From Rhodospirillales bacterium (GTDB lineage: Bacteria > Pseudomonadota > Alphaproteobacteria > Rhodospirillales > CALINB01), in contig JBBDTH010000018.1 of the NCBI GenBank assembly GCA_040904505.1, positions 1-56,744 of the forward strand: DNA of 56,744 bases. The letters are read 5' to 3'. Below the pieces are notes generated by a model. The model was not told where the DNA came from, made no database searches, and was given only the letters and a program-made list of their open reading frames with translations. Positions 1,703 through 21,761 of this stretch are shown in pieces. Position 1 is the stretch's first letter; every line of letters begins with the position of its first letter. The position numbers and the translations under genes are program-made.

Positions 1703-2506
1703 TCAGGGTAGCGATTTCGCGCATCGAAAGCCAATGTTACGGTGTCCCGCCCGAGGATTCCGGGATACGAACTCGCCGCGATAGGTCGTGCCGAGGTATT
1801 TCGGCGAATCGTCATGGCCGCCGCCGCGCGTGGCCCTGGCGGCCATGCTGTCGGGAGACTCGCGGCCATCGTCGGCACGATACGGATATTTTCGATAGAG
1901 ACTGCTGACCCACTCATGGGTATTGCCCGCCATATCGAGCACGCCCTCGGGCGTCGCGCCGCGCGGTAAGGAACCGACCGGGATCGTCATACCCCAGCCG
2001 GCCCCGTAACGCGCCCGGGTCTTATCCGGCGTTTCGTCGCCCCACGGATAAATCCTTCCTTCCTTTCCTCTCGCCGCAAACTCCCATTCGGCTTCCGTCG
2101 GAAGCCGCTTTCCCGCCCATTTGCAGTAATTTCTCGCCCCGAACCAACTCGCCTCGACAACCGGATGGTCTTCAAAGCTGTCATCTGCCTGAAATTTATT
2201 TTCGATACGATGAATGCGCGCGTCGTCATCGTCCCAATCGTAAAGGCGATACATCCGTTCATGGGTTTTACCGCCGGTGGCATTGAGAAACGATGCAAAC
2301 GCTCGATTCGTAACGGGCGTTTTATCGAGCAGAAAGTTTTCGACGGAAACCCGATGGGCGGGTTTTTCATCGTCCGGCCCGTCACCCCGCCCCATCGTGA
2401 ATGTCCCGCCGGGAATTTTAACCATCGCACTCGTATCGGCGGCCAAGGTTCCGAAAGACGCGAAGGCAAGCACGGAGCCGATGGCAATGAAAACACACCC
2501 CTTCAT
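1703..2506 (-). CDS. formylglycine-generating enzyme (FGE-sulfatase/SUMF1) domain protein with signal peptide
   Basis: Signal-like MKGCVFIAIGSVLAFASFGTLAAD, then FGE-domain hallmarks HPVVEASWFGARNYCKWAGKRLPTEAEWEFAARG and GNTHEWV. Start placed at the internal ATG 2504-2506 rather than at the ORF-track start. Confidence 0.85.
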   Translation of the reverse strand: MKGCVFIAIGSVLAFASFGTLAADTSAMVKIPGGTFTMGRGDGPDDEKPAHRVSVENFLLDKTPVTNRAFASFLNATGGKTHERMYRLYDWDDDDARIHRIENKFQADDSFEDHPVVEASWFGARNYCKWAGKRLPTEAEWEFAARGKEGRIYPWGDETPDKTRARYGAGWGMTIPVGSLPRGATPEGVLDMAGNTHEWVSSLYRKYPYRADDGRESPDSMAARATRGGGHDDSPKYLGTTYRGEFVSRNPRAGHRNIGFRCAKSLP

Positions 2507-2553
2507 GGATAAGAATGTCCTTTCCTTAAGCCGCGGCCATAGAATTTTCGAAT

Positions 2554-4284
2554 TCAGATCAGGCACACATCGCTGGCGCATCCTAGGTCTTTATCCGCTT
2601 CCACCAAAAGGCTCTGCCAGGATCCGGGCAGGTCGACCTGCCGGCCGATCACGCGGCGCGAGTTGCCCTGAAACCAGAAATTATGCGTCGGATGATCGCC
2701 GCCGGCGACCAAGAGGATTAGGTTTTCCGGCTTTCTGCAGATAGGCCACGGGTCAAGCGAGGCCGTTTTGATCGTATCGGGATGGGTGTCCGCCTCGATC
2801 CATTGCCTTAAGCCCGTCCTGATTACGTCGGCCTGCGGGATGGCGGAATGCTCCCAAAGATGGTTTCTGATCTTTTCCTTGGACCAACCGAGCTTTGCGA
2901 GCTGGTTCGCCGAGATCGGGGATAACAGCAATCCGCCGGGTGTGCCGTGTTCGTAACCCCGTATATAGTGAATGTTGGGAACCTTGAGGTAATCCACGAG
3001 TTTTTCGATGCTTTCGCGGGCTTCCTGCTCGAGGGTCTCCTTGCCGGTACCGCGGCGCATGATATTCGTGGCGCCGGTTGCGACAAAAACGGAAACGGCA
3101 TTGGTGTTCTGCTTGAAACCGTGCCGTTCCGTCGCGAAAGGCAGCCAGCCTTCGGGCAGCCTCTCCTCGTCTTCCGCGAACACGGCGTTGGTATAACGCA
3201 TCTGCCCGAAAACGGCCATCGTGCCGACCCCGGGAAGGGCGCCGCCGACATTTTGCAACAGAAACCGAATGGCCCGGCCGATGCTGGCGCCCGCCGGCCG
3301 TTGCGGATCGGGGCCTAATAAACCGAAACCGGAATTCAGGCGGACTTCTTTCGCGATCGGACCATTAACGACGACAACGGGAAAAGTGCTGCCCGACGTC
3401 GCTTGCCATTGATCGTGAACGAACTCCGGATCGAGGATCGCATCCAATGCGGCCAACAGAACGGGAAAATACTCCGGTCGGCCTCCGGCCATGGCCAAGG
3501 CGACGGCGGCAGTCTCGACCGTTGCGATACCGCCGCGCGGCATGATCTTGCCGAGCGTTTCGTATCGCAGTCTGTCCGAACCCCGGAGAATCCAATCGAC
3601 TCGTGTCATGTCGGGCGGGATGACCGGCAAGCCGTCTCCCCACAGGTTCGTCAGGAACAGGTTGTTGATTTGCCGGGCCGCATCTTCGTAGTCGTCGCTT
3701 GTGACCGTCATCATCGGCGCGTTGCGCATGCCGGTTTTCTTGGCCGCGGGCTGCCATCGCGTCAGGCCGTCGTAAAACTCCTCGATACGATCGGCTACGG
3801 GAGTCAGGTCGCTTTCGACCAAAAATAAATCGATGGGAAACGTGACCATGGCCGCGTCTTGATCGAATCCCAGACCCGAAACGGCATTACGGACGACGCC
3901 GACGAAATCTTCGCGCGTGAGAATGACGGTGGGAATGCCCTCGGCTTCGATTTTCGCGGCAGCACGGCCGCATGCCGTTGCGCAACGGCCTCAGGAGGCG
4001 TTGCCGATAACGATTGCGTCAACCTTCAGGTCTTTTGCGCGTCGAATCGTTTTATCTTTTTCGATTTCCAAATTACCGGTCGGAAATTCGGTGTAGGGAA
4101 CGATCTCGACGTCCTTGAAATTTTTCGCCATGAAATCGGCGATCAGAGGAAGCGTTCGATGCGCTTGCCATTCGTCATTCGAAACGAACCCGATTCTTTT
4201 GCCGTTTAGAGAATCAAGCCGGGGCGCGTGCAGGCAAAGCACTTCGGTCGCGCCGCTGGGGTCGAAAACGTCGATTGTATGCAT
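2554..4284 (-). CDS. candidate selenoprotein: UGSC-like N-terminal redox domain (Sec at TGA 3991-3993) continuous with a ~430-aa uncharacterised domain
   Basis: ORFs 3991..4290 and 2554..3849 are in the same frame (4290-3849=441). The 47 codons between them have no stop. Context is VDAIVIGNAS-U-GRCATAC. GGAG lies 7 nt before ATG 4284, and there is no SD before the internal ATG 3849. Sec machinery is present in the window. Confidence 0.6.
3974..3989 (-). promoter_or_regulatory. candidate SECIS-type stem-loop immediately 3' of the UGA at 3991-3993
   Basis: mRNA GCCGUU-GCGC-AACGGC forms a perfect 6-bp hairpin starting 2 nt after the UGA. An alternative outer pairing is GGCCG (3986-3990) with CGGCC (3966-3970). 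Confidence 0.35.
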
Positions 4285-11112: not shown

Positions 11113-12584
11113 CGAGCGAGATTTTCGTGAATGCCGGTCCCGGAGAAACGCGGATCGCCTGGCGGCAGGACGGCCGCTTGTGCGAGCTTGAAATAGACCG
11201 GCCCGCGATCACGCAAAATATTCTCGGCAATATTTATATGGGCCGCGTGGAGAAGGTGGTCGGCGGCATCGAGGCGGCCTTCGTCGATATCGGCCGGGAT
11301 AGAGCGGGTTTTCTGGCCTTGCCCGAAGTCCGCCCGGCCGGGGCGGCGCCGGACCGTGGGGACGATCGCATCGGCACGTATCTTAACGAGGGCGACGCCG
11401 TTTTGGTGCAAGTCGCGCGCGAGGAAATCGAGGACAAGGGCGCCAAACTTACGGTGCGGATCACGGTGCCGGGAATTTTCCTGGTATTGACCCCGGATGA
11501 CCCTCGGGTTCATGTGTCCAGGCACATCGAGAGCGAGCGGGAAAAAGAGCGGCTGAACGGGATTGTCGAAGAAAACAAGCTCGATACCGAAGGGTTTATC
11601 GTTCGAACGGCCGCCGTGAATGCCGATGACAAAGATATCCTTCGGGATATGGTTCTGCTGCGCGAGCAATGGGCCGAAATTATCGGGCGGAACCGGAATA
11701 AAACACCGCCCGTTTGCCTGCATCAAGAGCCGCCGCCGGTTTGTCGCTGGATAAGAAATATCGCGGGGCACGATGTGTCGCGGGTGGTGATCGATGAGCC
11801 CCGCGTCTTCAATCTGGTAAAAAAATATTGCGAACGAACGGCGCCGTTTTTTTTGGACAGGATCGAGTCGTACCGAGAGGCGACGCCCGTTTTCGAGGCT
11901 TATGGCATCGAAGATGAAATAGAGACGGCTTTGGCGCCGTGTATCAACCTGCCTTCCGGCGGGCGGCTTCAGATCGAGCATACGGCGGCCTTGACGGCGA
12001 TCGATATCGATACCGCCCGGGCGAGCGATGGCGGCGGCCGGGAGGAGGCGAATTCAAAAGTCAATCTCGAAGCCGCCGTCGAAATCGCGCGCCAGGTGCG
12101 GTTGCGTAACATCGGCGGATACGTCGTCGTGGATTTTGTGCCGATGAAGCGCCGCGAAAACAGGGAGAAGGTTTTATCCGTGCTGCGCCGGGAGTTTGCG
12201 CGCGACCCATGCCCGGCCTTCGTCGGCGGCTTCACGAAATTGGGTAAGCTCGAGCTTACGCGCCGGCGCCAACGGGACTCGATGGCGAATATGGTGCTCG
12301 AAGGCGGCACGGCCGCCGATCGGTATCAATGTCCTAAAACGGCGGAAACCGTCGCATTCGAGGCCTTGCGGGCGGCGGTCCGCGAGGCCAGGGCCAACCC
12401 GGGCAAACGCCTCGAAGTGCTGGCCGGCCCGGCCCTGGTTGACATGTTGCAAAACGGCGGGGCAAAACCGGGGCTGGAGCAGGCGCAAGAGATGCTCGGC
12501 GGGCCGCTTAAGATCACCGTCCGGAGCGATTTTGCCGCCCTGCGCTATGAGATCGCGAGCGGAGAGGGATCGTCAGGACTATGA
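11109..12584 (+). CDS. rng: ribonuclease E/G family protein (RNase G-like)
   Basis: 491 aa. S1-like N-terminus NIYMGRVEKVVGGIEAAFVDIG and catalytic core. 4-nt overlap with maf. Confidence 0.9.
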   Translation: MTSEIFVNAGPGETRIAWRQDGRLCELEIDRPAITQNILGNIYMGRVEKVVGGIEAAFVDIGRDRAGFLALPEVRPAGAAPDRGDDRIGTYLNEGDAVLVQVAREEIEDKGAKLTVRITVPGIFLVLTPDDPRVHVSRHIESEREKERLNGIVEENKLDTEGFIVRTAAVNADDKDILRDMVLLREQWAEIIGRNRNKTPPVCLHQEPPPVCRWIRNIAGHDVSRVVIDEPRVFNLVKKYCERTAPFFLDRIESYREATPVFEAYGIEDEIETALAPCINLPSGGRLQIEHTAALTAIDIDTARASDGGGREEANSKVNLEAAVEIARQVRLRNIGGYVVVDFVPMKRRENREKVLSVLRREFARDPCPAFVGGFTKLGKLELTRRRQRDSMANMVLEGGTAADRYQCPKTAETVAFEALRAAVREARANPGKRLEVLAGPALVDMLQNGGAKPGLEQAQEMLGGPLKITVRSDFAALRYEIASGEGSSGL

Positions 12585-13037: not shown

Positions 13038-13122
13038 TTTCCCTGTTGATTGTCCCCCGGAATTTGTCTTTCCTAGGGTTGATGGATTGCAGGATCTGAA
13101 AAAACCCGGCAAGGCGCCCACA

Positions 13123-14019
13123 ATGGTAACGCAAGCCCAAGAAATTTCATCTTCATCGCCGTCGGCGCGGTCTCTCGAGGTCGTGCCGGTATCGGCGGCC
13201 ATCGGTGCGGAGATCAAAGGGGTCGATCTGGCGGAGATGGACGCCGTGACGTTCGCGGCCGTTCGGAACGCCTGGCTCGAACATTGCGTTCTGTTGTTTC
13301 GCGACCAGGATATTTCGGATGCGGACCTGGTGGCGTTCAGCCGCCGGTTCGGCGACCTGGACGAATCGCCCCCCAACGAAAACGGCGTGATGAGCCCGTC
13401 GGGTTTTCCCGAGATTCTGGTTCTCTCGAACGTCGTAGAGAACGGCGTCGCCATCGGCAGCCTCGGCAATCAGGAATGCATCTGGCATTCGGACATGAAC
13501 TATCGCGAGAAGCCGCCGATGGGCAGCATGCTGTACTCCCTCGAAGTGCCGCCGTCGGGCGGCGACACGGGGTTCCTGAACGCCTACATGGCTTATGAAA
13601 CGTTGCCGGCGCCGCTGAAGCGCCGGATCGAGGGGCTCGAGATCAAGCACGATTCGACGACCAACAGCGCCGGGTACCGCCGGGAAGGTTCCGAGGACGT
13701 CACGGACGTCACGGTTTCGCCGGGCACGCGCCACCCCATCGTGCGGACTCATCCGGAGACCAAACGAAAAACGCTGTTCCTGGGCCGGCGCCGGTACGCC
13801 TACATCCCGGGCCTGGCGTTGGCGGACTCGGAGGCGCTGCTCGATGCGTTGTGGGCCCATGCGACCCAGGAGAAATTTACCTGGCATCATCATTGGCGCG
13901 TCGGCGATGTCGTTTGCTGGGATAACCGGTGCACGATGCATCGCCGCGACGATTTTCCGGAAAACCTCCGCCGCGTGATGCACCGGACCCAAATCAAAGG
14001 GGACCGGCCGTTCGCTTGA
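13123..14019 (+). CDS. TauD/TfdA family Fe(II)/2-oxoglutarate dioxygenase
   Basis: HxD in IWHSDMNY, distal His in CTMHRR, and overall TauD-like layout. Confidence 0.87.
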   Translation: MVTQAQEISSSSPSARSLEVVPVSAAIGAEIKGVDLAEMDAVTFAAVRNAWLEHCVLLFRDQDISDADLVAFSRRFGDLDESPPNENGVMSPSGFPEILVLSNVVENGVAIGSLGNQECIWHSDMNYREKPPMGSMLYSLEVPPSGGDTGFLNAYMAYETLPAPLKRRIEGLEIKHDSTTNSAGYRREGSEDVTDVTVSPGTRHPIVRTHPETKRKTLFLGRRRYAYIPGLALADSEALLDALWAHATQEKFTWHHHWRVGDVVCWDNRCTMHRRDDFPENLRRVMHRTQIKGDRPFA

Positions 14020-14040: not shown

Positions 14041-15267
14041 TTACTCGACCCGGTGTTTTTGCGCCGTCGGCACCAACGATTTCTCGCCGAGCACCGTGAT
14101 GGCGGGCGTATCGCTGGCGAGGCAGATTTTTCGCAAGACGAAAATAACCCGGGCGAACGCCGTTTCCCCCCAAAACCAGTTTTCGAGTTGCCGTTGCGAG
14201 ACGGTTCCCGGCTGCGCCATCATGGCTTCCAAATAATAGGCCTTGATGTCTTCATAAGCCGCGCGCAGGAAGGCGTCTGTTTTCAGATCCCCGCGCGGCG
14301 GCGGGGTCGCGGGGTCCTCGATGAAATTCAGGATAAACGCGGCGGCCTCGGCGATGTCGACGCCGCTCACGCCGACCGTGGTGCGCCCGCGCCGTTCGAC
14401 GGACAAGCCGTACCAAGGTTGCAGCCGGTCCATTTCCTCCCGAAACGCTTTCGCCAAACCGTTCTCGTCGGCCTCGCCGGGCAGCGGCGGCAGATCGACC
14501 GGGCAGACCATGCCGGTCATGTCGTCGTCTTCGCTCTCGAGCGTATCGGGCGCGTCTTCCGGAAAATCGGCCAGCAACGGGCCGGTGTGCGCGTCGAGAA
14601 GATCCAACGCAGCCCGGAGAACCTTTTTCTGAAAGGCCGGGTCGTTGGGTGCGCCCAGGGGACGGCCGAGCATGAACGGCACCCACAGCGCCCGCGGCGG
14701 TTTGATCCGCTCGGTGTGGTCGCGAACGAGGCTGATTTGGGTCGTGGCGATGCCGTCGCGTTCAAGGTAATGAGCGAGCGCGCCGACGGCGCGCGTGCAC
14801 ATGGGTCAGACGGGCACCAGCAACACGGTGTCGACGCCGTCCTTCTTCAAAAGGCCGGCCAGGGTGCGCCCGGCGACGTCCAGCTTCTCCGGCGCCGTGC
14901 TGCCGAGCACGGAGTAATGGTAATCGGCAATGGAACCGATGACGCCCTCGCGGGCCAGTTCCTTGAGGCGCTCGAGCGGAAAGCAGATATTCAAATCCTG
15001 CTGATACCCCGTGCGGTCGAAATTCGAGGAATTATGCGCCATGATCAGATCGCCCGCCGGCGTGTCGGCGGGGATGATTCGGTAGTCGGTCGCGCCTCGG
15101 GTCAGAAGCGGATCGCTGTGCCGTTGCAGGGCGGCGGTCGAGATGATGGCGATCCGTCTTTCCTCGAGCGGCGGCCCCGGCGTCCAGGGAGTCGTCTCGA
15201 ATTCGGGACAGGGCGTCTTTAACAGATGGGCACTCATCGCCTCGGAGACGTCGGTGAGCCGAACCAT
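14041..15267 (-). CDS. glycine/sarcosine/betaine reductase component B (GrdB) family selenoprotein candidate, Sec at TGA 14806-14808
   Basis: ORFs 14806..15279 and 14041..14802 are in frame. The junction reads DTVLLVPV-U-PMCTRAVGALAHYLERDGIATTQISL, the U/CxxC core of the GRDB family. ATG 15267, with an alternative TTG at 15279. Confidence 0.8.
14778..14794 (-). promoter_or_regulatory. candidate SECIS stem-loop
   Basis: mRNA GCGCGCC-GUC-GGCGCGC forms a 7-bp GC stem that begins 11 nt after the UGA. The apical loop contains GU. Confidence 0.55.
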
Positions 15268-15431
15268 GAAATTTTCCAATCGAATTAGATATGCCTGACG
15301 GCGAGAGTTGCAGGATAAACAATCAGGTCGCGATTTGGCAAATCAAAGCGCGGCATTGCGGATTGGGCGGTTGCCTCCGGCCCGGCCTTCCTCCATACTT
15401 GCCTGAACGACATGTATCAGGGAGAATCGTC

Positions 15432-16226
15432 ATGACCGCCGAGCGCGTTAAAGTCTTCTGGCAGCCTGGCTGAACGAGCTGTCTTAAAACCAAGGAATTC
15501 TTGGCGGCCCGTGGGGTCGATTTCGAATCCGTTAATGTTCAGGACGATCCGGAAGGATTAGCCGAGTTACGCAGACTCGGGGCGCGGTCCGTGCCGGTCG
15601 TATCCGTGGGCGATAAGTGGACGTTCACGCAGACCTTCGACGATGTCTGCAAAATGTTGGGCATCGAATACGACGATACCCCGCAGCTTTCCCCCGAAGA
15701 CCTTGCCCGCAAAACGGATATGATTCTTGCGGCCGCCGAACGATTCGTCCGGCAGCTGCCGCCCGATCAGTTCGAGCAGAATGTCCGTACCCGCAAGCGG
15801 GCCTACAAGAATCTCTGTTATCATATTTTCCGGCTGACCGAGTCGTTCCTGGATGTCGTGATCGACGGCGGCGGCAAGGAGAAGTTTACCCGGGATCATA
15901 TGAATCCCCTGTGCCCGGCTCATCTGAAGTCGTTCGAGGATATCGCCGATTTCGGCGCGTCCGTGCGCAAACGGTTCAACGATTGGTGGGCGAATAAAGG
16001 GGACGTGTCCTTCGATCGGATCGTGCCGACGTATTACGGGGACAAGAAGATGCACTATGTCTTCGAGCGGTTGACGTGGCACCCGGGCCAGCATGTCCGC
16101 CAGCTTATGATGCTCCTGCGCGAGGACTTCAAAATCGAGCCCAAGCAACCCTTACAGGATTCGGATTTCGCGGGTTTGCCCATTCCCGAAAAGGCCTGGG
16201 ACGATGAGCCCGGGATGACGAAGTAA
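15432..16226 (+). CDS. glutaredoxin-fold / DinB-like fusion, selenoprotein candidate (Sec14, motif U-T-S-C)
   Basis: GGGAGA SD then ATG 15432. MTAERVKVFWQPG-U-TSCLKTKEFLAARGVDFESVNV...SVPVV is a Grx/NrdH-type fold with TGA 15471-15473 at the first redox position. The frame is continuous with ORF 15501..16226. The C-terminal half has a DinB-like His pattern (CYHIF, WHPGQH). Confidence 0.72.
15490..15504 (+). promoter_or_regulatory. weak candidate SECIS stem-loop
   Basis: CCAAG-GAAUU-CUUGG lies 16 nt after the UGA. It can be extended by GCUG (15478-15481) pairing with CGGC (15505-15508) across an 8-nt bulge. Confidence 0.25.
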
Positions 16227-16260: not shown

Positions 16261-16355
16261 TGGCGGAAGAGAGTGGGAGTCGAACCCACCAGGAACGCCT
16301 AACGCCCCTGAACGGATTTGAAGTCCGCCCGAGCCACCGGACCCGATTCCCTTCC
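16261..16355 (-). tRNA. selC: tRNA-Sec (anticodon UCA)
   Basis: 95-nt reverse complement GGAAGGGAATCGGGTCCGGTGGCTCGGGCGGACTTCAAATCCGTTCAGGGGCGTTAGGCGTTCCTGGTGGGTTCGACTCCCACTCTCTTCCGCCA. It has the GGAAG start, a long acceptor stem, a long variable arm and a CTTCAAA anticodon loop, as in E. coli selC. Confidence 0.93.
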
Positions 16356-16398
16356 AGGAAGAAGCAACTTAAAGCCGAACGCCCGTTCGGACAATGAC

Positions 16399-16428
16399 GA
16401 TCTGGGCCGATCTGGGCCGATGCGGGCC
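16399..16428. repeat. three tandem copies of a 10-nt unit GATCTGGGCC (third copy degenerate)
   Basis: gatctgggcc gatctgggcc gatgcgggcc, located between typA and selC. Confidence 0.7.
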
Positions 16429-16462
16429 GACCCGACTCGCGCCGTTTGTTGGGGGGCGGGCG

Positions 16463-18286
16463 TTACGCGGCCCGCGACGCGCGTTTGCGTTCGTGTTCCT
16501 TGAGGAACTTCTTGCGGATGCGGATCGATTTCGGCGTGACCTCGACCAGCTCGTCGCCGTCGATGAATTCAAGCGCATATTCGAGGGTCGCGCGGATCGG
16601 CGGCGTCAACAGGATGTTTTCGTCGCTGCCGGCGGCGCGAATATTCGTCAGTTGTTTTGTCTTGAGCGGATTCACGACCAGATCGTTGTCGCGCGAATGG
16701 ATCCCGATCACCATGCCTTCGTACACATCAAGGCCCGGATTGATGAACAGATCGCCCCGCTCCTGAAGATTGAAGAGGGCGTAGGCAATCGATTTTCCGG
16801 TCGCCATCGAAACGAGGACGCCGTTGCGGCGCTCGTTGATGCTGCCGGTCACCCGGGGGCCGTAGTGATCGAAGGTATGGTACATCAAGCCGGTCCCGGA
16901 CGTGGTCGTGAGGAAATCCGAGCGAAAACCGATCAAGCTGCGGCTCGGGATAAGATAATCGAGCCGGACCCGTCCCTTGCCGTCCGGCGTCATGTCACGC
17001 AGTTCGCCGCGCCGCTCGCCGAGCTTTTCCATGACGGCGCCCTGATGCTGTTCCTCGACGTCGATCGTCAACGTTTCCCACGGTTCGCAGATTTCCCCGT
17101 CGATCGTCTTCAAAATCACTTCGGGGCGCGAAATGGCCAACTCGTAGCCTTCCCGCCGCATGTTTTCGATCAGGATCGACAGGTGCAGCTCGCCGCGTCC
17201 GGAAACCTTGAATTTATCCTGGCTGTCCGTCGGTTCGACCCGCAGGGCGACGTTGTGCAGTAATTCCCGATCGAGGCGGTCGCGAAGATTGCGGCTGGTG
17301 ACGAATTTTCCTTCGCGTCCGGCGAACGGCGAGTCGTTAACCTGAAACGTCATGGAAATCGTCGGTTCGTCGACGACCAGGGGCGGCAGCGCCTCGACGG
17401 CATCCGGGTGGCACAGCGTATCGGAGATGTGCAGTTCCTCGAGGCCGGTGAACGCGATGATCTGACCGGCATGGGCTTCTTTTTGTTCGATCTTCTCGAG
17501 CCCGTGGAATCCGAGAATTTGCAACATGCGGCCCTGCCGGGTGTTGCCGTCGGCGCCGATTACGGTGATGGAGCTGTTGGCCTTGATCCTGCCCCGGCGA
17601 ACGCGGCCGATGCCGATGACGCCGACATAGCTGGAATAGTCCAGCGCGCTGACCTGCAATTGAAACGGGCCGTTTAAATCCACGTCCGGCGGCGGCACGT
17701 GATCGATAACGGTTTGGAACAGTTCGGTCATGTCTTCGCGCGGCGAATCAAGGCTTCGCGAGGCCCACCCTTGGGTCGCGGATGCGTAAATTACCGGGAA
17801 ATCGAGTTGTTCGTCGGTCGCGCCCAAGCGCACGAACAGATCGAATGTCTGGTCGACGGCCCAATCGGGCCGCGCGCCCTGCCGGTCGACTTTGTTGATG
17901 ACCAGAATAGGGCGCAGGCCTTGAGCAAGCGCCTTGCTCGTCACGAACCGGGTTTGCGGCATCGGGCCTTCGACGGCGTCCACAAGCAGCAGGACCGAGT
18001 CCACCATGGACAAAACCCGCTCGACCTCGCCGCCGAAGTCGGCGTGGCCCGGCGTGTCGACGATATTGATGCGCCAGTCCTTCCAGTGAATCGACGTATT
18101 TTTCGATAAAATCGTGATTCCGCGCTCGCGCTCGAGATCGTTCGAATCCATCACCCGTTCCGACGCGTCGCCGAACTTCGTGAGCGTGCCGGATTGGCGG
18201 AGCAACTGATCGACGAGCGTGGTTTTGCCATGATCCACGTGGGCGATAATGGCAATGTTGCGAAGGCCGCTTATTTTATCGTTCAT
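16463..18286 (-). CDS. typA: translational GTPase TypA/BipA
   Basis: 607 aa. [22 protein letters not shown] plus full-length BipA-like sequence. Confidence 0.96.
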
Positions 18287-18390
18287 TTAAGGTGTTTACC
18301 TGCGTTGGAAAGCGGTCATGTGTCACCTTTTCCCCCGGATTGCAAGGGGGCTTTCGGCAAAGCTACGGTCAAAGCCTACGGAATTGGAGG

Positions 18391-20325
18391 TTAATCATCC
18401 GTTAGGGGGCGGAAAACCTCGTCCGCGGGGCGGAGGATGCCGCGCAGGTCGCCTTGGCGTTTGGTCAGCTTGACCGTATCGAAGTATTCCAGGAGTTCGA
18501 TGGTCAGGTTGCGCCCGATCCCGGAACGGTCGCGGAACGCGGCGGCGTTGAACAGGCCATCCGGGCTGTCCGTGGCCAGTTGCTCGGCGATGGCGCCAAG
18601 CCGGTGCAAGGCGTCGGGCGTGAAATACCGGTTCTTGGCAACGGGTTGCACGACGCCCCGCCGAACGCTCCGGTCCAGAAACCGCTGAAGTTGATCCGGT
18701 CTCATGCCGAGGTCTGCGGCGAGTTCGCGCACGGTCGGCGGGCGCAGCCCCGCTTTGTCCAGCAGCGGCTTGACCCGCTTCCAAAGCGCGGCTTCCTGGG
18801 GCGGTATGGACGGTCGGTGTCCGGCAAGGCCGATAAGCTCGCTCCGGCGCGTTAGGCTCTTATCGTCGATAAGGCGTTCCACGGCGGCGCCGAGCAAGCC
18901 GTCGATTAACCGCAGGGACAGGCGTTGTGTTACTTGGACTACTGTCAGGCCCGGGCTTTCCGGCCGTTCGCCATGCCATTTCTTCAAGGTATCGAGAAGT
19001 TCCGTTTGCAGCCGGTCCCATAAACGGGGAGCAAGGGCGAACCGCTGCGTTCCGGCCGTTAGAACCGTTATCGAGCCGCTGTCGCGAAGCGCGGTATATT
19101 CCGATTCCGTTAAATTCCGGGCCCGGGCGAATTGAGTAAGGTCGATGCCGTTCGGCGATGATTCCGCCAGTTCCGATAAGGCAAGCGTGGGGTTGTCTTG
19201 GTCCAGGGCAACAAGCTGGAGGAGGCGTTCCGGCTTCGCGCGTCCCCGTTTCGGCGCGAAGGGATCGAGCACCCAGCCGCCGCCGATCGTCCGCCGGGCC
19301 GATTGGTCGCGCAGGATGAAGCGGTCGCCGTAAAAAACGTTCGTTTTATCGTCCAGGACGAGTTGCGCAATGCCGGTATCGCCGGGTTCGATCGCGCGCG
19401 ATTCCAAGATGGCAAGGCGTCCCGGCAGGTCGGCGGCGCCGACGTGCACGTGTACAGGCATCCAATGCCTGAGGGGGCGCGGCTCTCGGATGAGGGCGCG
19501 GACCTTGACGTCGATCCGGTCCGTCGGCACGAAGGCAGGCTCCGCAACGATCCAGCTTCCCCGTTGAACGGCCGATTTCTTGAGATCGCGGCCGGTCAGG
19601 TTCAGGGCGCATCGTTGCCCCGCCGATCCGCGCTCGGATTCCCGGTTTTGGGCGTGCAGACTCCGCACGCGGGCGGGGATGCCCGCCGGCGCGACGATGA
19701 TCTGATCGCCCGTTTGCACCGTTCCGGAGAATACGGACCCGGTGACCACGAGTCCGGAGCCCGAAAGCGTAAAGCACCGATCGACGGCCAGCCGAAAGTT
19801 GCCGTGCGTTCGGCGCCGTTCCAGGTGATGGGCGACATCGTGAAGATGCCGGTAGAGGACGTCGATGCCGTCGCCCGTCAGTGCGGAAACGCGGAAGCTC
19901 GGCGCATTTTCAAGCGCCGTTCCACTCAGAAGCCCGGAGATTTGCACGTCGACCTCATCGAGGCGGGCTTGATCGACCCGGTCGCTTTTCGTAATCGCGA
20001 TCGCGCCGTTTCGCACATTGAGCAGATTAAGGATGTCCAGGTGTTCCACCGTTTGCGGCATGATGCCGTCATCGGCGGCGACGACGAAAAGGACGAAATC
20101 GATGTTGGTAACGCCGGCCAGCATATTGCGAACGAACCGTTCGTGACCCGGTACATCGACAAATCCGAGAGTCTCGTCGTCCCCGAAAGCCTTATAAGCG
20201 AAACCGATGTCGATTGTCAGGCCTCGGCGTTTCTCGTCGGGCAGGCGGTCGGTGTCGATTCCTGTTAACGCCTTAACCAGAAGTGTCTTGCCGTGATCGA
20301 TGTGGCCGGCTGTCGCGATAATCAA
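18391..20325 (-). CDS. selB: selenocysteine-specific translation elongation factor
   Basis: 644 aa. [41 protein letters not shown] plus a long winged-helix C-terminal extension. The TTG start overlaps the selA stop (TTGA). Confidence 0.93.
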
Positions 20326-21761
20326 GATGCTGCCTCGTCCGCCAATACGAGCTTTTCGAGTTGGGTGCTAAATCCTTGTTCGTCTTCCAAGCACCGAAGA
20401 TCGAGCCAAAAGGCGTTGTCCTGAAGCCGCCCGATGACGGGTCGTGGCAGGCTTCGAAAGGCGTCCGCAATGCGCCGTGCCGCCGTACCGGCTTTGCGCT
20501 TGCCGGCTTTCGGTCGGATGACGAGCGCCGCGCTGGGGATGCGGGTCAGGGGTAAGGAGCCGCTACCGGTTTGGCTGTCGCAGGGCTCGACCGTCACCTC
20601 GGCCACAGGGGCCAAGCATTTTTGCAAGTTCGGCAAGAGGCGTTGCGCCGATTGCTCGACCGAGTCGCGGGAGCGGGCCAGCAGACGTAATGTCGGCACG
20701 CGTTCGAGCAGTTTTTCCGGATTGGCATAGAGTTGCAGAACGGCGGCGAGGGCGGCGATCGTCACCTTGTCGAGCCGCATGGCCCGTTTCATGGGATTGC
20801 GTTTGATTTTGCCGATCAGATCGGCGCGCCCGACGATGATGCCGGCCTGCGGACCGCCCAAAAGTTTATCCCCGCTGAACGTTACCAAATCGGCGCCTTG
20901 GGCAAGGGTTTCCTGGGCGGTCGGTTCGTGGGGCAGGCCGTAGGGGGCCAAATCGACGAGGGTGCCGCTGCCGAGATCCACCATAAACGGCAAGCCGTGC
21001 CGATGGGCGAGATCGGCCAGCTCTTTTTCCGGAACCGTCTTGGTGAATCCTTGCACGGTGTAGTTGCTGGTGTGCACTTTCATCAAAAGCGCGGTGCGCT
21101 TGCCGATGGCGCTTTCGAAGTCTTTCAGGTGCGTGCGATTGGTCGTACCGACCTCGACGAGTTTGCAGCCGGCCCGGCTCATGATGTCGGGCATGCGGAA
21201 CGATCCGCCGATTTCGATGAGCTCTCCCCGGGAAACGGGAATCTCCTTTTTGAGCCCGAAGGTGTTCAAACACAGCAGGACGGCGGCGGCATTATTGTTC
21301 ACGACGGTCGCCGCTTCGGCTCCCGTAAGACGGCAGAGCAGCGTATCGAGATGGCTATCCCTATCGCCGCGCTTGCCTGTCGCCAAGTCGTATTCGAGAT
21401 TACCGGCCTCCCGGGCGGCATCCGTCATGGCGGTAATGGCTTCCTCGGGCAACAAGGCCCGGCCCAAATTCGTATGCAGGACCGTTCCGGTGAGATTGTA
21501 GACGGCCCGCAGCGGCGGTTGCACCCACGAGTCAAGAAGACCGGCGACCAGCGGGACGACGGTTTCATCGTCGATGGGTTTGGCAATTCTCGGCCGCTCG
21601 GCCGCGAAAGAATCGCGAAGCTTTGCTAACACGGTTCGCACGGCGTCCGCCGTCATCGGGCGCCCGTATCTCTCCGTCATGGCAACGATGGGCGGGAGGT
21701 TCAGGACGTGATCGACGGAGGGAATAGAGGCTAGAACGGTATCAGAAGAAGGCATCGGCAC
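20322..21761 (-). CDS. selA: L-seryl-tRNA(Sec) selenium transferase
   Basis: 479 aa. NLTGTVLHTNLGRALL and the PLP-lysine context FSGDKLLGGPQAGIIVGR. Confidence 0.95.
   Translation of the reverse strand: MPMPSSDTVLASIPSVDHVLNLPPIVAMTERYGRPMTADAVRTVLAKLRDSFAAERPRIAKPIDDETVVPLVAGLLDSWVQPPLRAVYNLTGTVLHTNLGRALLPEEAITAMTDAAREAGNLEYDLATGKRGDRDSHLDTLLCRLTGAEAATVVNNNAAAVLLCLNTFGLKKEIPVSRGELIEIGGSFRMPDIMSRAGCKLVEVGTTNRTHLKDFESAIGKRTALLMKVHTSNYTVQGFTKTVPEKELADLAHRHGLPFMVDLGSGTLVDLAPYGLPHEPTAQETLAQGADLVTFSGDKLLGGPQAGIIVGRADLIGKIKRNPMKRAMRLDKVTIAALAAVLQLYANPEKLLERVPTLRLLARSRDSVEQSAQRLLPNLQKCLAPVAEVTVEPCDSQTGSGSLPLTRIPSAALVIRPKAGKRKAGTAARRIADAFRSLPRPVIGRLQDNAFWLDLRCLEDEQGFSTQLEKLVLADEAAS

Follow-up and report, generated by a model that had tools for sequence, protein, structure and literature searches.

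A PrdB-like selenoprotein gene with a conserved SECIS-like hairpin beside tRNA-Sec, selB and selA genes in a Rhodospirillales bacterium

The locus and its reading frame

We analysed a 56,744-nucleotide (nt) stretch of DNA from a Rhodospirillales bacterium (GenBank assembly GCA_040904505.1, contig JBBDTH010000018.1, positions 1 to 56,744; hereafter, the window), which carries a gene for a PrdB-like protein with one in-frame TGA, read here as a selenocysteine (Sec) codon and followed by a hairpin resembling a bacterial selenocysteine insertion sequence (SECIS). The local gene order is hisG, hisD, UPF0262, low-molecular-weight phosphatase, maf, RNase G, tRNA-Phe, TauD-family dioxygenase (+), the PrdB-like gene (−), a glutaredoxin-DinB fusion gene (Grx-DinB, +), selC (−), typA (−), selB (−) and selA (−). 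The features discussed below are collected in Table 1.

The PrdB-like gene is a single frame of 408 codons, and translation of 15279..14041 shows the TGA to be its sole interruption. Mechanical calling divides it into two open reading frames (ORFs), 14806..15279(−) and 14041..14802(−), which are separated only by that codon. An earlier note on this DNA had joined these two entries, of 157 and 253 amino acids, into one frame interrupted by the TGA alone, and our translation agrees, with the clarification that the gene lies on the minus strand. The frame junction reads VLLVPV*PMCTRAVGALAHYLERDGIATTQISL, and the product around the Sec residue is ...VLLVPV-U-PMC-TRAVGALAHYLERDGIATTQISL.... The start codon was set at the ATG (MVRLTDVSE...) that matches the MVRL/MVKL N-termini of the full-length homologs in the alignment.

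Table 1. Coordinates of the selenoprotein genes, the predicted recoding signals and the selenocysteine machinery genes in the window.
Feature	Position	Strand	Description and evidence
PrdB-like selenoprotein coding sequence	14041..15267	−	408 codons including Sec152; start ATG 15267; stop TGA 14043-14041; translation, Pfam, NCBIfam, homolog alignment
UGA read as Sec (U152 of U-P-M-C)	14806..14808	−	Cys column in full-length homologs; TGA in 80/80 related loci and in tandem paralogs
Putative SECIS upper stem-loop, GCGCGCC-GUC-GGCGCGC	14778..14794	−	7 base pairs (bp), GUC loop, 17 nt, begins 11 nt past the UGA; synonymous-site entropy and pair counts
Grx-DinB selenoprotein gene	15432..16226	+	In-frame TGA 15471-15473; glutaredoxin-like domain (U14-T-S-C) and DinB_2; translation
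selC, tRNA-Sec, anticodon UCA	16261..16355	−	ARAGORN; Rfam RF01852, 77 bits vs gathering 47; ~1 kb from the PrdB-like selenoprotein gene
selB, Sec-specific elongation factor, predicted hairpin binder	18391..20325	−	Pfam GTP_EFTU, Beta-barrel_SelB and SelB winged-helix domains
selA, selenocysteine synthase	20322..21761	−	Pfam SelA, 4.3e-163

The in-frame UGA as a selenocysteine codon

A search of a collection of 5.8 billion proteins returned 1812 matches of two kinds, namely full-length proteins of ~415 residues and proteins of ~245-255 residues that begin just past the TGA position; the latter are gene calls truncated at the stop codon. In the alignment of the homologs (A1), all full-length proteins show Cys opposite the TGA (VPV-C-PNC-SR or SPV-C-PGC-TR), as the first Cys of a CxxC motif. 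By scanning one genome per GTDB species we confirmed at least 592 relatives of the gene, and the best 80 were fetched. They belong to the Alphaproteobacteria/Rhodospirillaceae, the Dehalococcoidia/Chloroflexota, the Desulfobacterota and the Beta- and Gammaproteobacteria, that is, to at least five phyla or classes. TGA stands at the Sec codon in 80/80 of these species-level loci, with both halves of the gene conserved and in frame, and likewise in the extra tandem copies of loci L008, L014, L018, L020 and L035. The earlier note would have given up the Sec reading if the TGA had aligned to a column other than Cys or Sec, or if close relatives had carried another sense codon there; since the column is Cys and TGA recurs in all 80 relatives, the Sec reading stands.

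The tandem second copies lie ~1.23 kb downstream of the first in L008, L014, L018 and L020, and at position 2043 in L035; in copies of the AVGA(A/V)A type the hairpin is displaced by a few nt and its loop is G-U-G. The forms from Dehalococcoidia and Betaproteobacteria (L003, L005, L010, L015, L016, L019, L022, L023, L036, L039, L075 and others) read U-x-x-C-T-C/S/G and not U-x-x-C-T-R, so that some of them hold a third Cys (UxxCxC).

The hairpin downstream of the UGA

The 11-nt spacer between the UGA and the hairpin is CCCAUGUGCAC, and the hairpin spans nt 15-31, counting from the U of the UGA. Both the hairpin and its resemblance in spacing to the minimal E. coli SECIS had been put forward in the earlier note; we find the hairpin where it was proposed, and its 17-nt length, its nt 15-31 span and its 11-nt distance from the UGA are those of the fdhF-type upper stem-loop, as described in passages of a review (PMC8659212).

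The main evidence for the putative SECIS is comparative. Synonymous-site entropy was computed at the third positions of four-fold codons in 71 distinct Sec-type sequences, whose source genomes have 47-71% GC. The stem codons are low (+4 Thr, 0.61 bits; +5 Arg, 0.00; +6 Ala, 0.51; +8 Gly, 0.37; +9 Gly, 0.15), whereas the loop codon (+7 Val) reaches 1.51 bits and the four-fold codons flanking the hairpin 1.1-1.9 bits; the synonymous constraint thus tracks the stem and not the peptide. Pairs were counted in a gap-free alignment of 79 sequences (A4), in which 87% of the cells of the 7-bp helix are paired, vs 34-54% in slid registers. Pair 22-36 of this alignment covaries (C-G 64, U-A 10, G-C 2), pair 25-33 includes one U-A, and the covariation score of the helix was reached by 0/500 shuffles. 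The apical loop is G-U-N in all 79 sequences. Where Arg at codon +5 gives way to Cys, Ser or Gly, codon +9 is altered as well (GGG to GGA; GCG to GCA or GCC), which is what a constraint at the RNA level predicts. Among the Cys forms, which served as controls, the Halieaceae loci L082 and L083 have no comparable GC-rich hairpin at that position; in the closest Cys form, L081, the 17-nt hairpin is absent in register and RNAfold gives a different, imperfect 13-bp stem there. As for chance, each strand of the window has 47 positions at which a perfect 7-bp hairpin with a loop of 3-8 nt starts, so that the probability of one beginning 8-20 nt past a given codon is ~1%. It is this comparative evidence, and not the folding energy of the single sequence, that we regard as decisive for the predicted SECIS.

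The hairpin also departs from the E. coli fdhF-type element, for which the same review passages give a U17 bulge and the loop bases G23 and U24 as essential. The loop has 3 nt here, G22-U23-N24, and nt 17 is paired in the window hairpin, unlike the bulged U17. A point of likeness is the G.G mismatch of most relatives, which falls at nt 17/29, nt 17 being the position of the E. coli bulge. A lower stem reaching toward the UGA, another point of difference, is unsupported across the PrdB-like family and is not claimed, as its outer three pairs form in just 13-38% of the sequences. A scan of the window with Rfam matched tRNA-Sec alone and nothing at the hairpin.

From these sequence comparisons, the recoding of UGA152 as Sec through a conserved SECIS appears well supported, with the machinery encoded alongside.

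Protein family and domain architecture

The product matches the Pfam GRDB family (PF07355) with 32.3 bits against a gathering score of 22 (E = 8.7e-8), over residues 81-151 and profile positions 274-345/347. The match stops directly before the Sec position. The best NCBIfam match is the PrdB model TIGR04483 (E = 1.3e-27, residues 28-225, profile 20-219/238), with a score of 96.8 bits that falls below the equivalog cut-off of 300. As to the NCBIfam models of GrdB/GrdF/GrdH, only their last ~145 positions match (profile ~272-418 of ~430-residue models), all below cut-off (47.1 vs 65.45 and 39.8 vs 602), and the N-terminal ~270 residues of GrdB are missing from the window protein. Judged by these profiles, the protein is nearer to the D-proline reductase subunit PrdB than to GrdB, and far below both curated cut-offs. 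The GrdB-family label of the earlier note is thus corrected to PrdB-like.

The homology to PrdB extends over nearly the whole PrdB length and both proteins have their Sec in a UxxC motif; the PrdB selenoprotein is that of Clostridium sticklandii (PMC1088965, citing Kabisch et al. 1999). The window protein differs from PrdB by a score of one third of the equivalog cut-off, by an extra ~180-residue helical C-terminal domain with an invariant Cys, and by a gene that has no PrdA pyruvoyl proprotein or PrdC gene nearby and that stands alone in Alphaproteobacteria, Dehalococcoidia and Desulfobacterota. With GrdB/GrdF/GrdH (PF07355, TIGR01917/01918), it shares a GRDB match above the gathering score, a TGA right past the end of the model and the UxxC. 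It differs from them in the partial match, in the UxxC itself, since UxxCxxC is stated for GrdB (some relatives have UxxCxC), and in its surroundings, where grdA, grdC, grdD and grdE were not found among ORFs of at least 150 residues.

The N-terminal ~225 residues thus form a PrdB/GrdB-type domain, and residues ~226-408 (~180 residues) have no Pfam or NCBIfam match. This C-terminal domain is nevertheless conserved across the family, with invariant positions that include C255-P256, W285, R295-T296, D340, Y345 and G354. For the structure we used an AlphaFold2 model of a Cys homolog, P0003, which is 46% identical to the window protein (mean predicted local distance difference test, pLDDT, 78). 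The model has an alpha/beta N-terminal domain and an all-helical C-terminal domain. Strand 137-140 is followed by helix 146-161, whose N-cap is the site of the Sec-equivalent Cys145 and whose first turn holds the second Cys; the invariant Cys245 lies in the linker, at a pLDDT below 50. By this model, Sec152 and Cys155 of the window protein would be placed at a beta-strand-to-helix junction.

Selenocysteine machinery and the second selenoprotein gene

The tRNA-Sec, selB and selA genes lie 1-6.5 kb from the PrdB-like gene. They belong to a compact Sec locus (16261..21761, minus strand) with the order selC, typA/bipA, selB and selA, in which selB and selA overlap by 4 nt. The earlier note had mentioned neither these genes nor the second selenoprotein gene nor the ~180-residue C-terminal domain. 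Among the relatives, a selA, selB or selD-fusion gene lies within 10 kb of the PrdB-like gene in 8/80 loci (L026, L034, L040, L042, L048, L050, L052 and L060), as well as in L085 and in this window; the genes concerned are selA/selB and/or a fusion of pyridine-nucleotide-disulfide oxidoreductase and SelD. Such proximity suggests that the PrdB-like selenoprotein gene and the genes of the Sec machinery travel or are retained as a group; a rough estimate for it under random placement is ~1%.

The Grx-DinB gene is divergent from the PrdB-like gene, 164 bp apart, and its sequence reads MTAERVKVFWQPG-U-TSC-LKTKEF.... When the U is replaced by C, the whole Glutaredoxin profile is matched (1-58/60, E = 2.6e-13), and in all full-length homologs the U is matched by the first Cys of WQPG-C-TSC. 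Most members of the family have Cys, only a few close relatives are cut at the TGA, and the Sec form of the glutaredoxin-DinB fusion is rare. A hairpin, CCAAG-GAAUU-CUUGG, begins 16 nt past its UGA (about 15490-15504). In L040, from a Hyphomicrobiaceae metagenome-assembled genome (MAG), a Grx-DinB gene with TGA (11323..12069; VFWQPH-U-TSC) stands between the PrdB-like gene, which directly precedes it, and selA-selB, which lie downstream. As a conserved partner of the PrdB-like family, Grx-DinB was rejected, being beside it in only 2/81 loci; as a redox partner in this genome only, it is possible.

Gene neighbourhood

As the earlier note had said of the Grd genes, no partner gene was found alongside: a Pfam scan of the window ORFs of at least 150 residues, which left out shorter ORFs and hence a possible split grdA, detected none of PrdA, PrdC and GrdA/C/D/E. 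Likewise, PrdA and PrdC are not among the recurrent neighbours of 81 loci. Its view that this is no canonical glycine reductase also holds. No neighbour is conserved across the 81 loci, the commonest occurring in 12/81, and further annotated neighbourhoods are just as diverse. In one Rhodospirillaceae clade, the PrdB-like gene is preceded at ~24 nt by a CoA-transferase III gene and followed at ~20 nt by a D-2-hydroxyacid dehydrogenase gene.

The TauD/TfdA-family dioxygenase gene (13087..14019, plus strand) converges on the PrdB-like gene, with 21 nt between their ends. Near relatives of the latter, TauD genes occur in 7/80 loci and also beside the Halieaceae Cys forms, where TauD, VTT/DedA and PrdB-like genes make up a co-directional row (L009, L033, L048, L082, L083 and L089 are loci with TauD). 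We did not retain TauD as a functional partner: the association, seen here and with the Halieaceae Cys forms, is too weak and may be due to chance, as TauD paralogs are numerous.

Two further observations concern other genes. A molybdopterin oxidoreductase is encoded by one gene of 748 residues in L082 (9995..12241) and by genes of 273 and 456 residues in L089 (7998..10246), a split that could be due to a Sec-TGA or to a frameshift. At 1703..3849 of the window (minus strand), an FGE-sulfatase-domain ORF (1703..2581) and a 431-residue ORF with no Pfam match (2554..3849) share 28 nt; both adjoin an SNF-family transporter ORF whose best-matched stretch starts at profile position 182.

Proposed function and alternative explanations

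We consider it highly probable that the gene encodes a 408-residue selenoprotein of the PrdB/GrdB superfamily, in which UGA152 is recoded by means of the hairpin, and which is not the B subunit of a D-proline, glycine, sarcosine or betaine reductase. In this proposal, SelB-GTP-Sec-tRNA(Sec) would be recruited to a ribosome at UGA152 by the 17-nt hairpin that lies 11 nt downstream, and Sec would be inserted in place of termination. By analogy with PrdB/GrdB, the Sec152 selenolate would act as the nucleophile that attacks an electrophilic atom of the substrate, Cys155 would resolve the adduct to yield a selenenyl-sulfide, and a thiol system would then re-reduce the centre, the candidates being the invariant linker Cys255 and the neighbouring Sec-containing Grx-DinB protein. 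The names D-proline or glycine reductase are unsuited to such a protein, because no pyruvoyl partner (PrdA/GrdE) was found in the window, because it has an extra domain and because it stands alone in many lineages; indeed, the gene is stand-alone in hundreds of mostly non-fermentative lineages.

Several observations weigh against this proposal. The proposed chemistry is drawn from the homology to PrdB/GrdB and from the UxxC geometry, and both it and the redox partner are purely conjectural. A profile search of the PDB sequences gave 0 matches at E <= 1, and a Foldseek search of the P0003 model against the PDB gave 0 matches at E <= 0.001. No selD gene was found within the 56.7-kb window, and L040 is the sole locus of the 80 with Grx-DinB beside the PrdB-like gene. 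As to the hairpin, the fold of the 71-nt segment is no more stable than its dinucleotide shuffles (z = −0.02), which makes single-sequence energy uninformative in this GC-rich coding sequence. A G.G mismatch replaces the third stem pair in 51/79 relatives, whereas the window has G-C there, so that its perfect 7-bp stem is the exception, and part of the hairpin conservation is at the protein level, because it lies inside a strongly conserved peptide, C-T-R-A-V-G-G/A-L.

In one alternative, the TGA is a real stop, the locus holds two separate genes or a pseudogene, and the hairpin results from the GC-rich codons of a conserved peptide; gene callers do split the halves (a GRDB ORF of 153 residues and an ORF of ~250 residues) and the fold z-score is not significant. 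We give this explanation almost no credence, given that species of several phyla, 80/80, share the TGA and keep both halves of the gene in frame, that homologs have Cys at its position, that the synonymous constraint is confined to the stem with compensatory changes tracking the amino-acid changes, and that tRNA-Sec, selB and selA are adjacent. It is also very improbable that the protein is a genuine PrdB subunit of D-proline reductase, with PrdA encoded elsewhere in the genome. TIGR04483 is indeed its best NCBIfam match (profile 20-219/238), JGI labels some homologs "D-proline reductase (dithiol) PrdB", and the literature files marine UxxC/pfam07355 sequences as PrdB; but its 96.8 bits fall well short of the equivalog cut-off of 300, the 408 residues with an extra conserved domain contrast with the 238-position profile of PrdB (a single-domain subunit of ~240 residues), no PrdA-like gene occurs among the window ORFs of at least 150 residues or the recurrent neighbours of the 81 loci, and the hosts include Rhodospirillaceae, Halieaceae and Dehalococcoidia, which are not Stickland fermenters.

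Mechanistically, the main competing explanation is a thiol/selenol-disulfide oxidoreductase or an antioxidant of the peroxidase type, in which the UxxC would shuttle electrons with no cleavage of a carbon-heteroatom bond. This role is consistent with the position of the UxxC at a strand-to-helix N-cap in the P0003 model, like that of redox CxxC proteins, with the neighbouring Sec-containing Grx-DinB gene, with the MsrA, OsmC and DinB_2 genes near the PrdB-like gene in L085, and with the placing of the family among thiol-dependent redox selenoproteins in passages of the selenoproteome papers. We nonetheless hold it to be unlikely: the protein is homologous to substrate-cleaving B proteins and not to the thioredoxin fold, other loci do not conserve the stress-gene neighbourhood, and the CoA-transferase III and D-2-hydroxyacid dehydrogenase genes that flank the gene with ~20-nt gaps in one Rhodospirillaceae clade suggest a metabolic role. 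Returning to the PrdB/GrdB-superfamily selenoprotein that we favour, we tentatively extend the proposal, with some doubt, to the family: the "marine PrdB" proteins may be self-contained two-domain selenoenzymes with a chemistry of their own, and no Stickland-type reductase subunits, in which a PrdB-like UxxC domain would be joined to a private helical domain, with an invariant Cys on a flexible linker between the two, the gene tending to travel with the Sec genes as a "selenium island" and its product being serviced here by the Sec-containing Grx-DinB protein.

Relation to catalogued selenoproteins and significance

In the Sargasso Sea selenoproteome (2005; PMC1088965), "Proline reductase PrdB, UxxC" is the third most abundant selenoprotein family, with 42 Sec and 1 Cys sequences, and the Global Ocean Sampling (GOS) selenoproteome (2008; PMC2398784) enters this family as pfam07355, counting 235 Sec sequences against 110 with Cys; in both, it is abundant in the oxic surface ocean. 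A 2006 survey, in the corresponding passage, reports a "proline reductase" in Anaeromyxobacter and Geobacter uraniumreducens, and Geobacter-type relatives are among our retrieved loci. The relatives retrieved are largely MAGs of marine Rhodospirillaceae/Alphaproteobacteria, and some homologs already carry the names selenoprotein B family or PrdB at NCBI and JGI. As described in these passages, the marine family shares with the window protein both pfam07355 and UxxC, and its Sec forms outnumber the Cys forms. By these shared descriptors, and not by sequence comparison, the window gene very probably belongs to it, and is a new member of a selenoprotein family that these surveys had already catalogued. 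The survey passages contain no mention that we found of the C-terminal domain, of the PrdB criteria that are unmet beyond the fold (including the missing PrdA) or of the linkage to sel genes, and a literature search for "PrdB-like" or "GrdB-like" selenoproteins returned nothing relevant.

For annotation, the gene should be entered as one selenoprotein of 408 residues, whereas public calls split its relatives into "hypothetical proteins" of ~153 and ~250 residues. The locus also offers a compact test bed, as both selenoprotein genes, selC, selB and selA lie within 8 kb. The recoding of a UGA is in itself textbook, and the question of interest is the function of the widespread enzyme. The family occurs in at least 592 species-level genomes and, if it is the "PrdB" of the Sargasso Sea and GOS passages, it is among the most abundant marine selenoproteins. 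It lacks every hallmark of D-proline reductase except the catalytic fold. This widespread enzyme is probably misnamed, and identifying its substrate would go a good way toward explaining why bacteria of the oxic ocean retain the Sec machinery.

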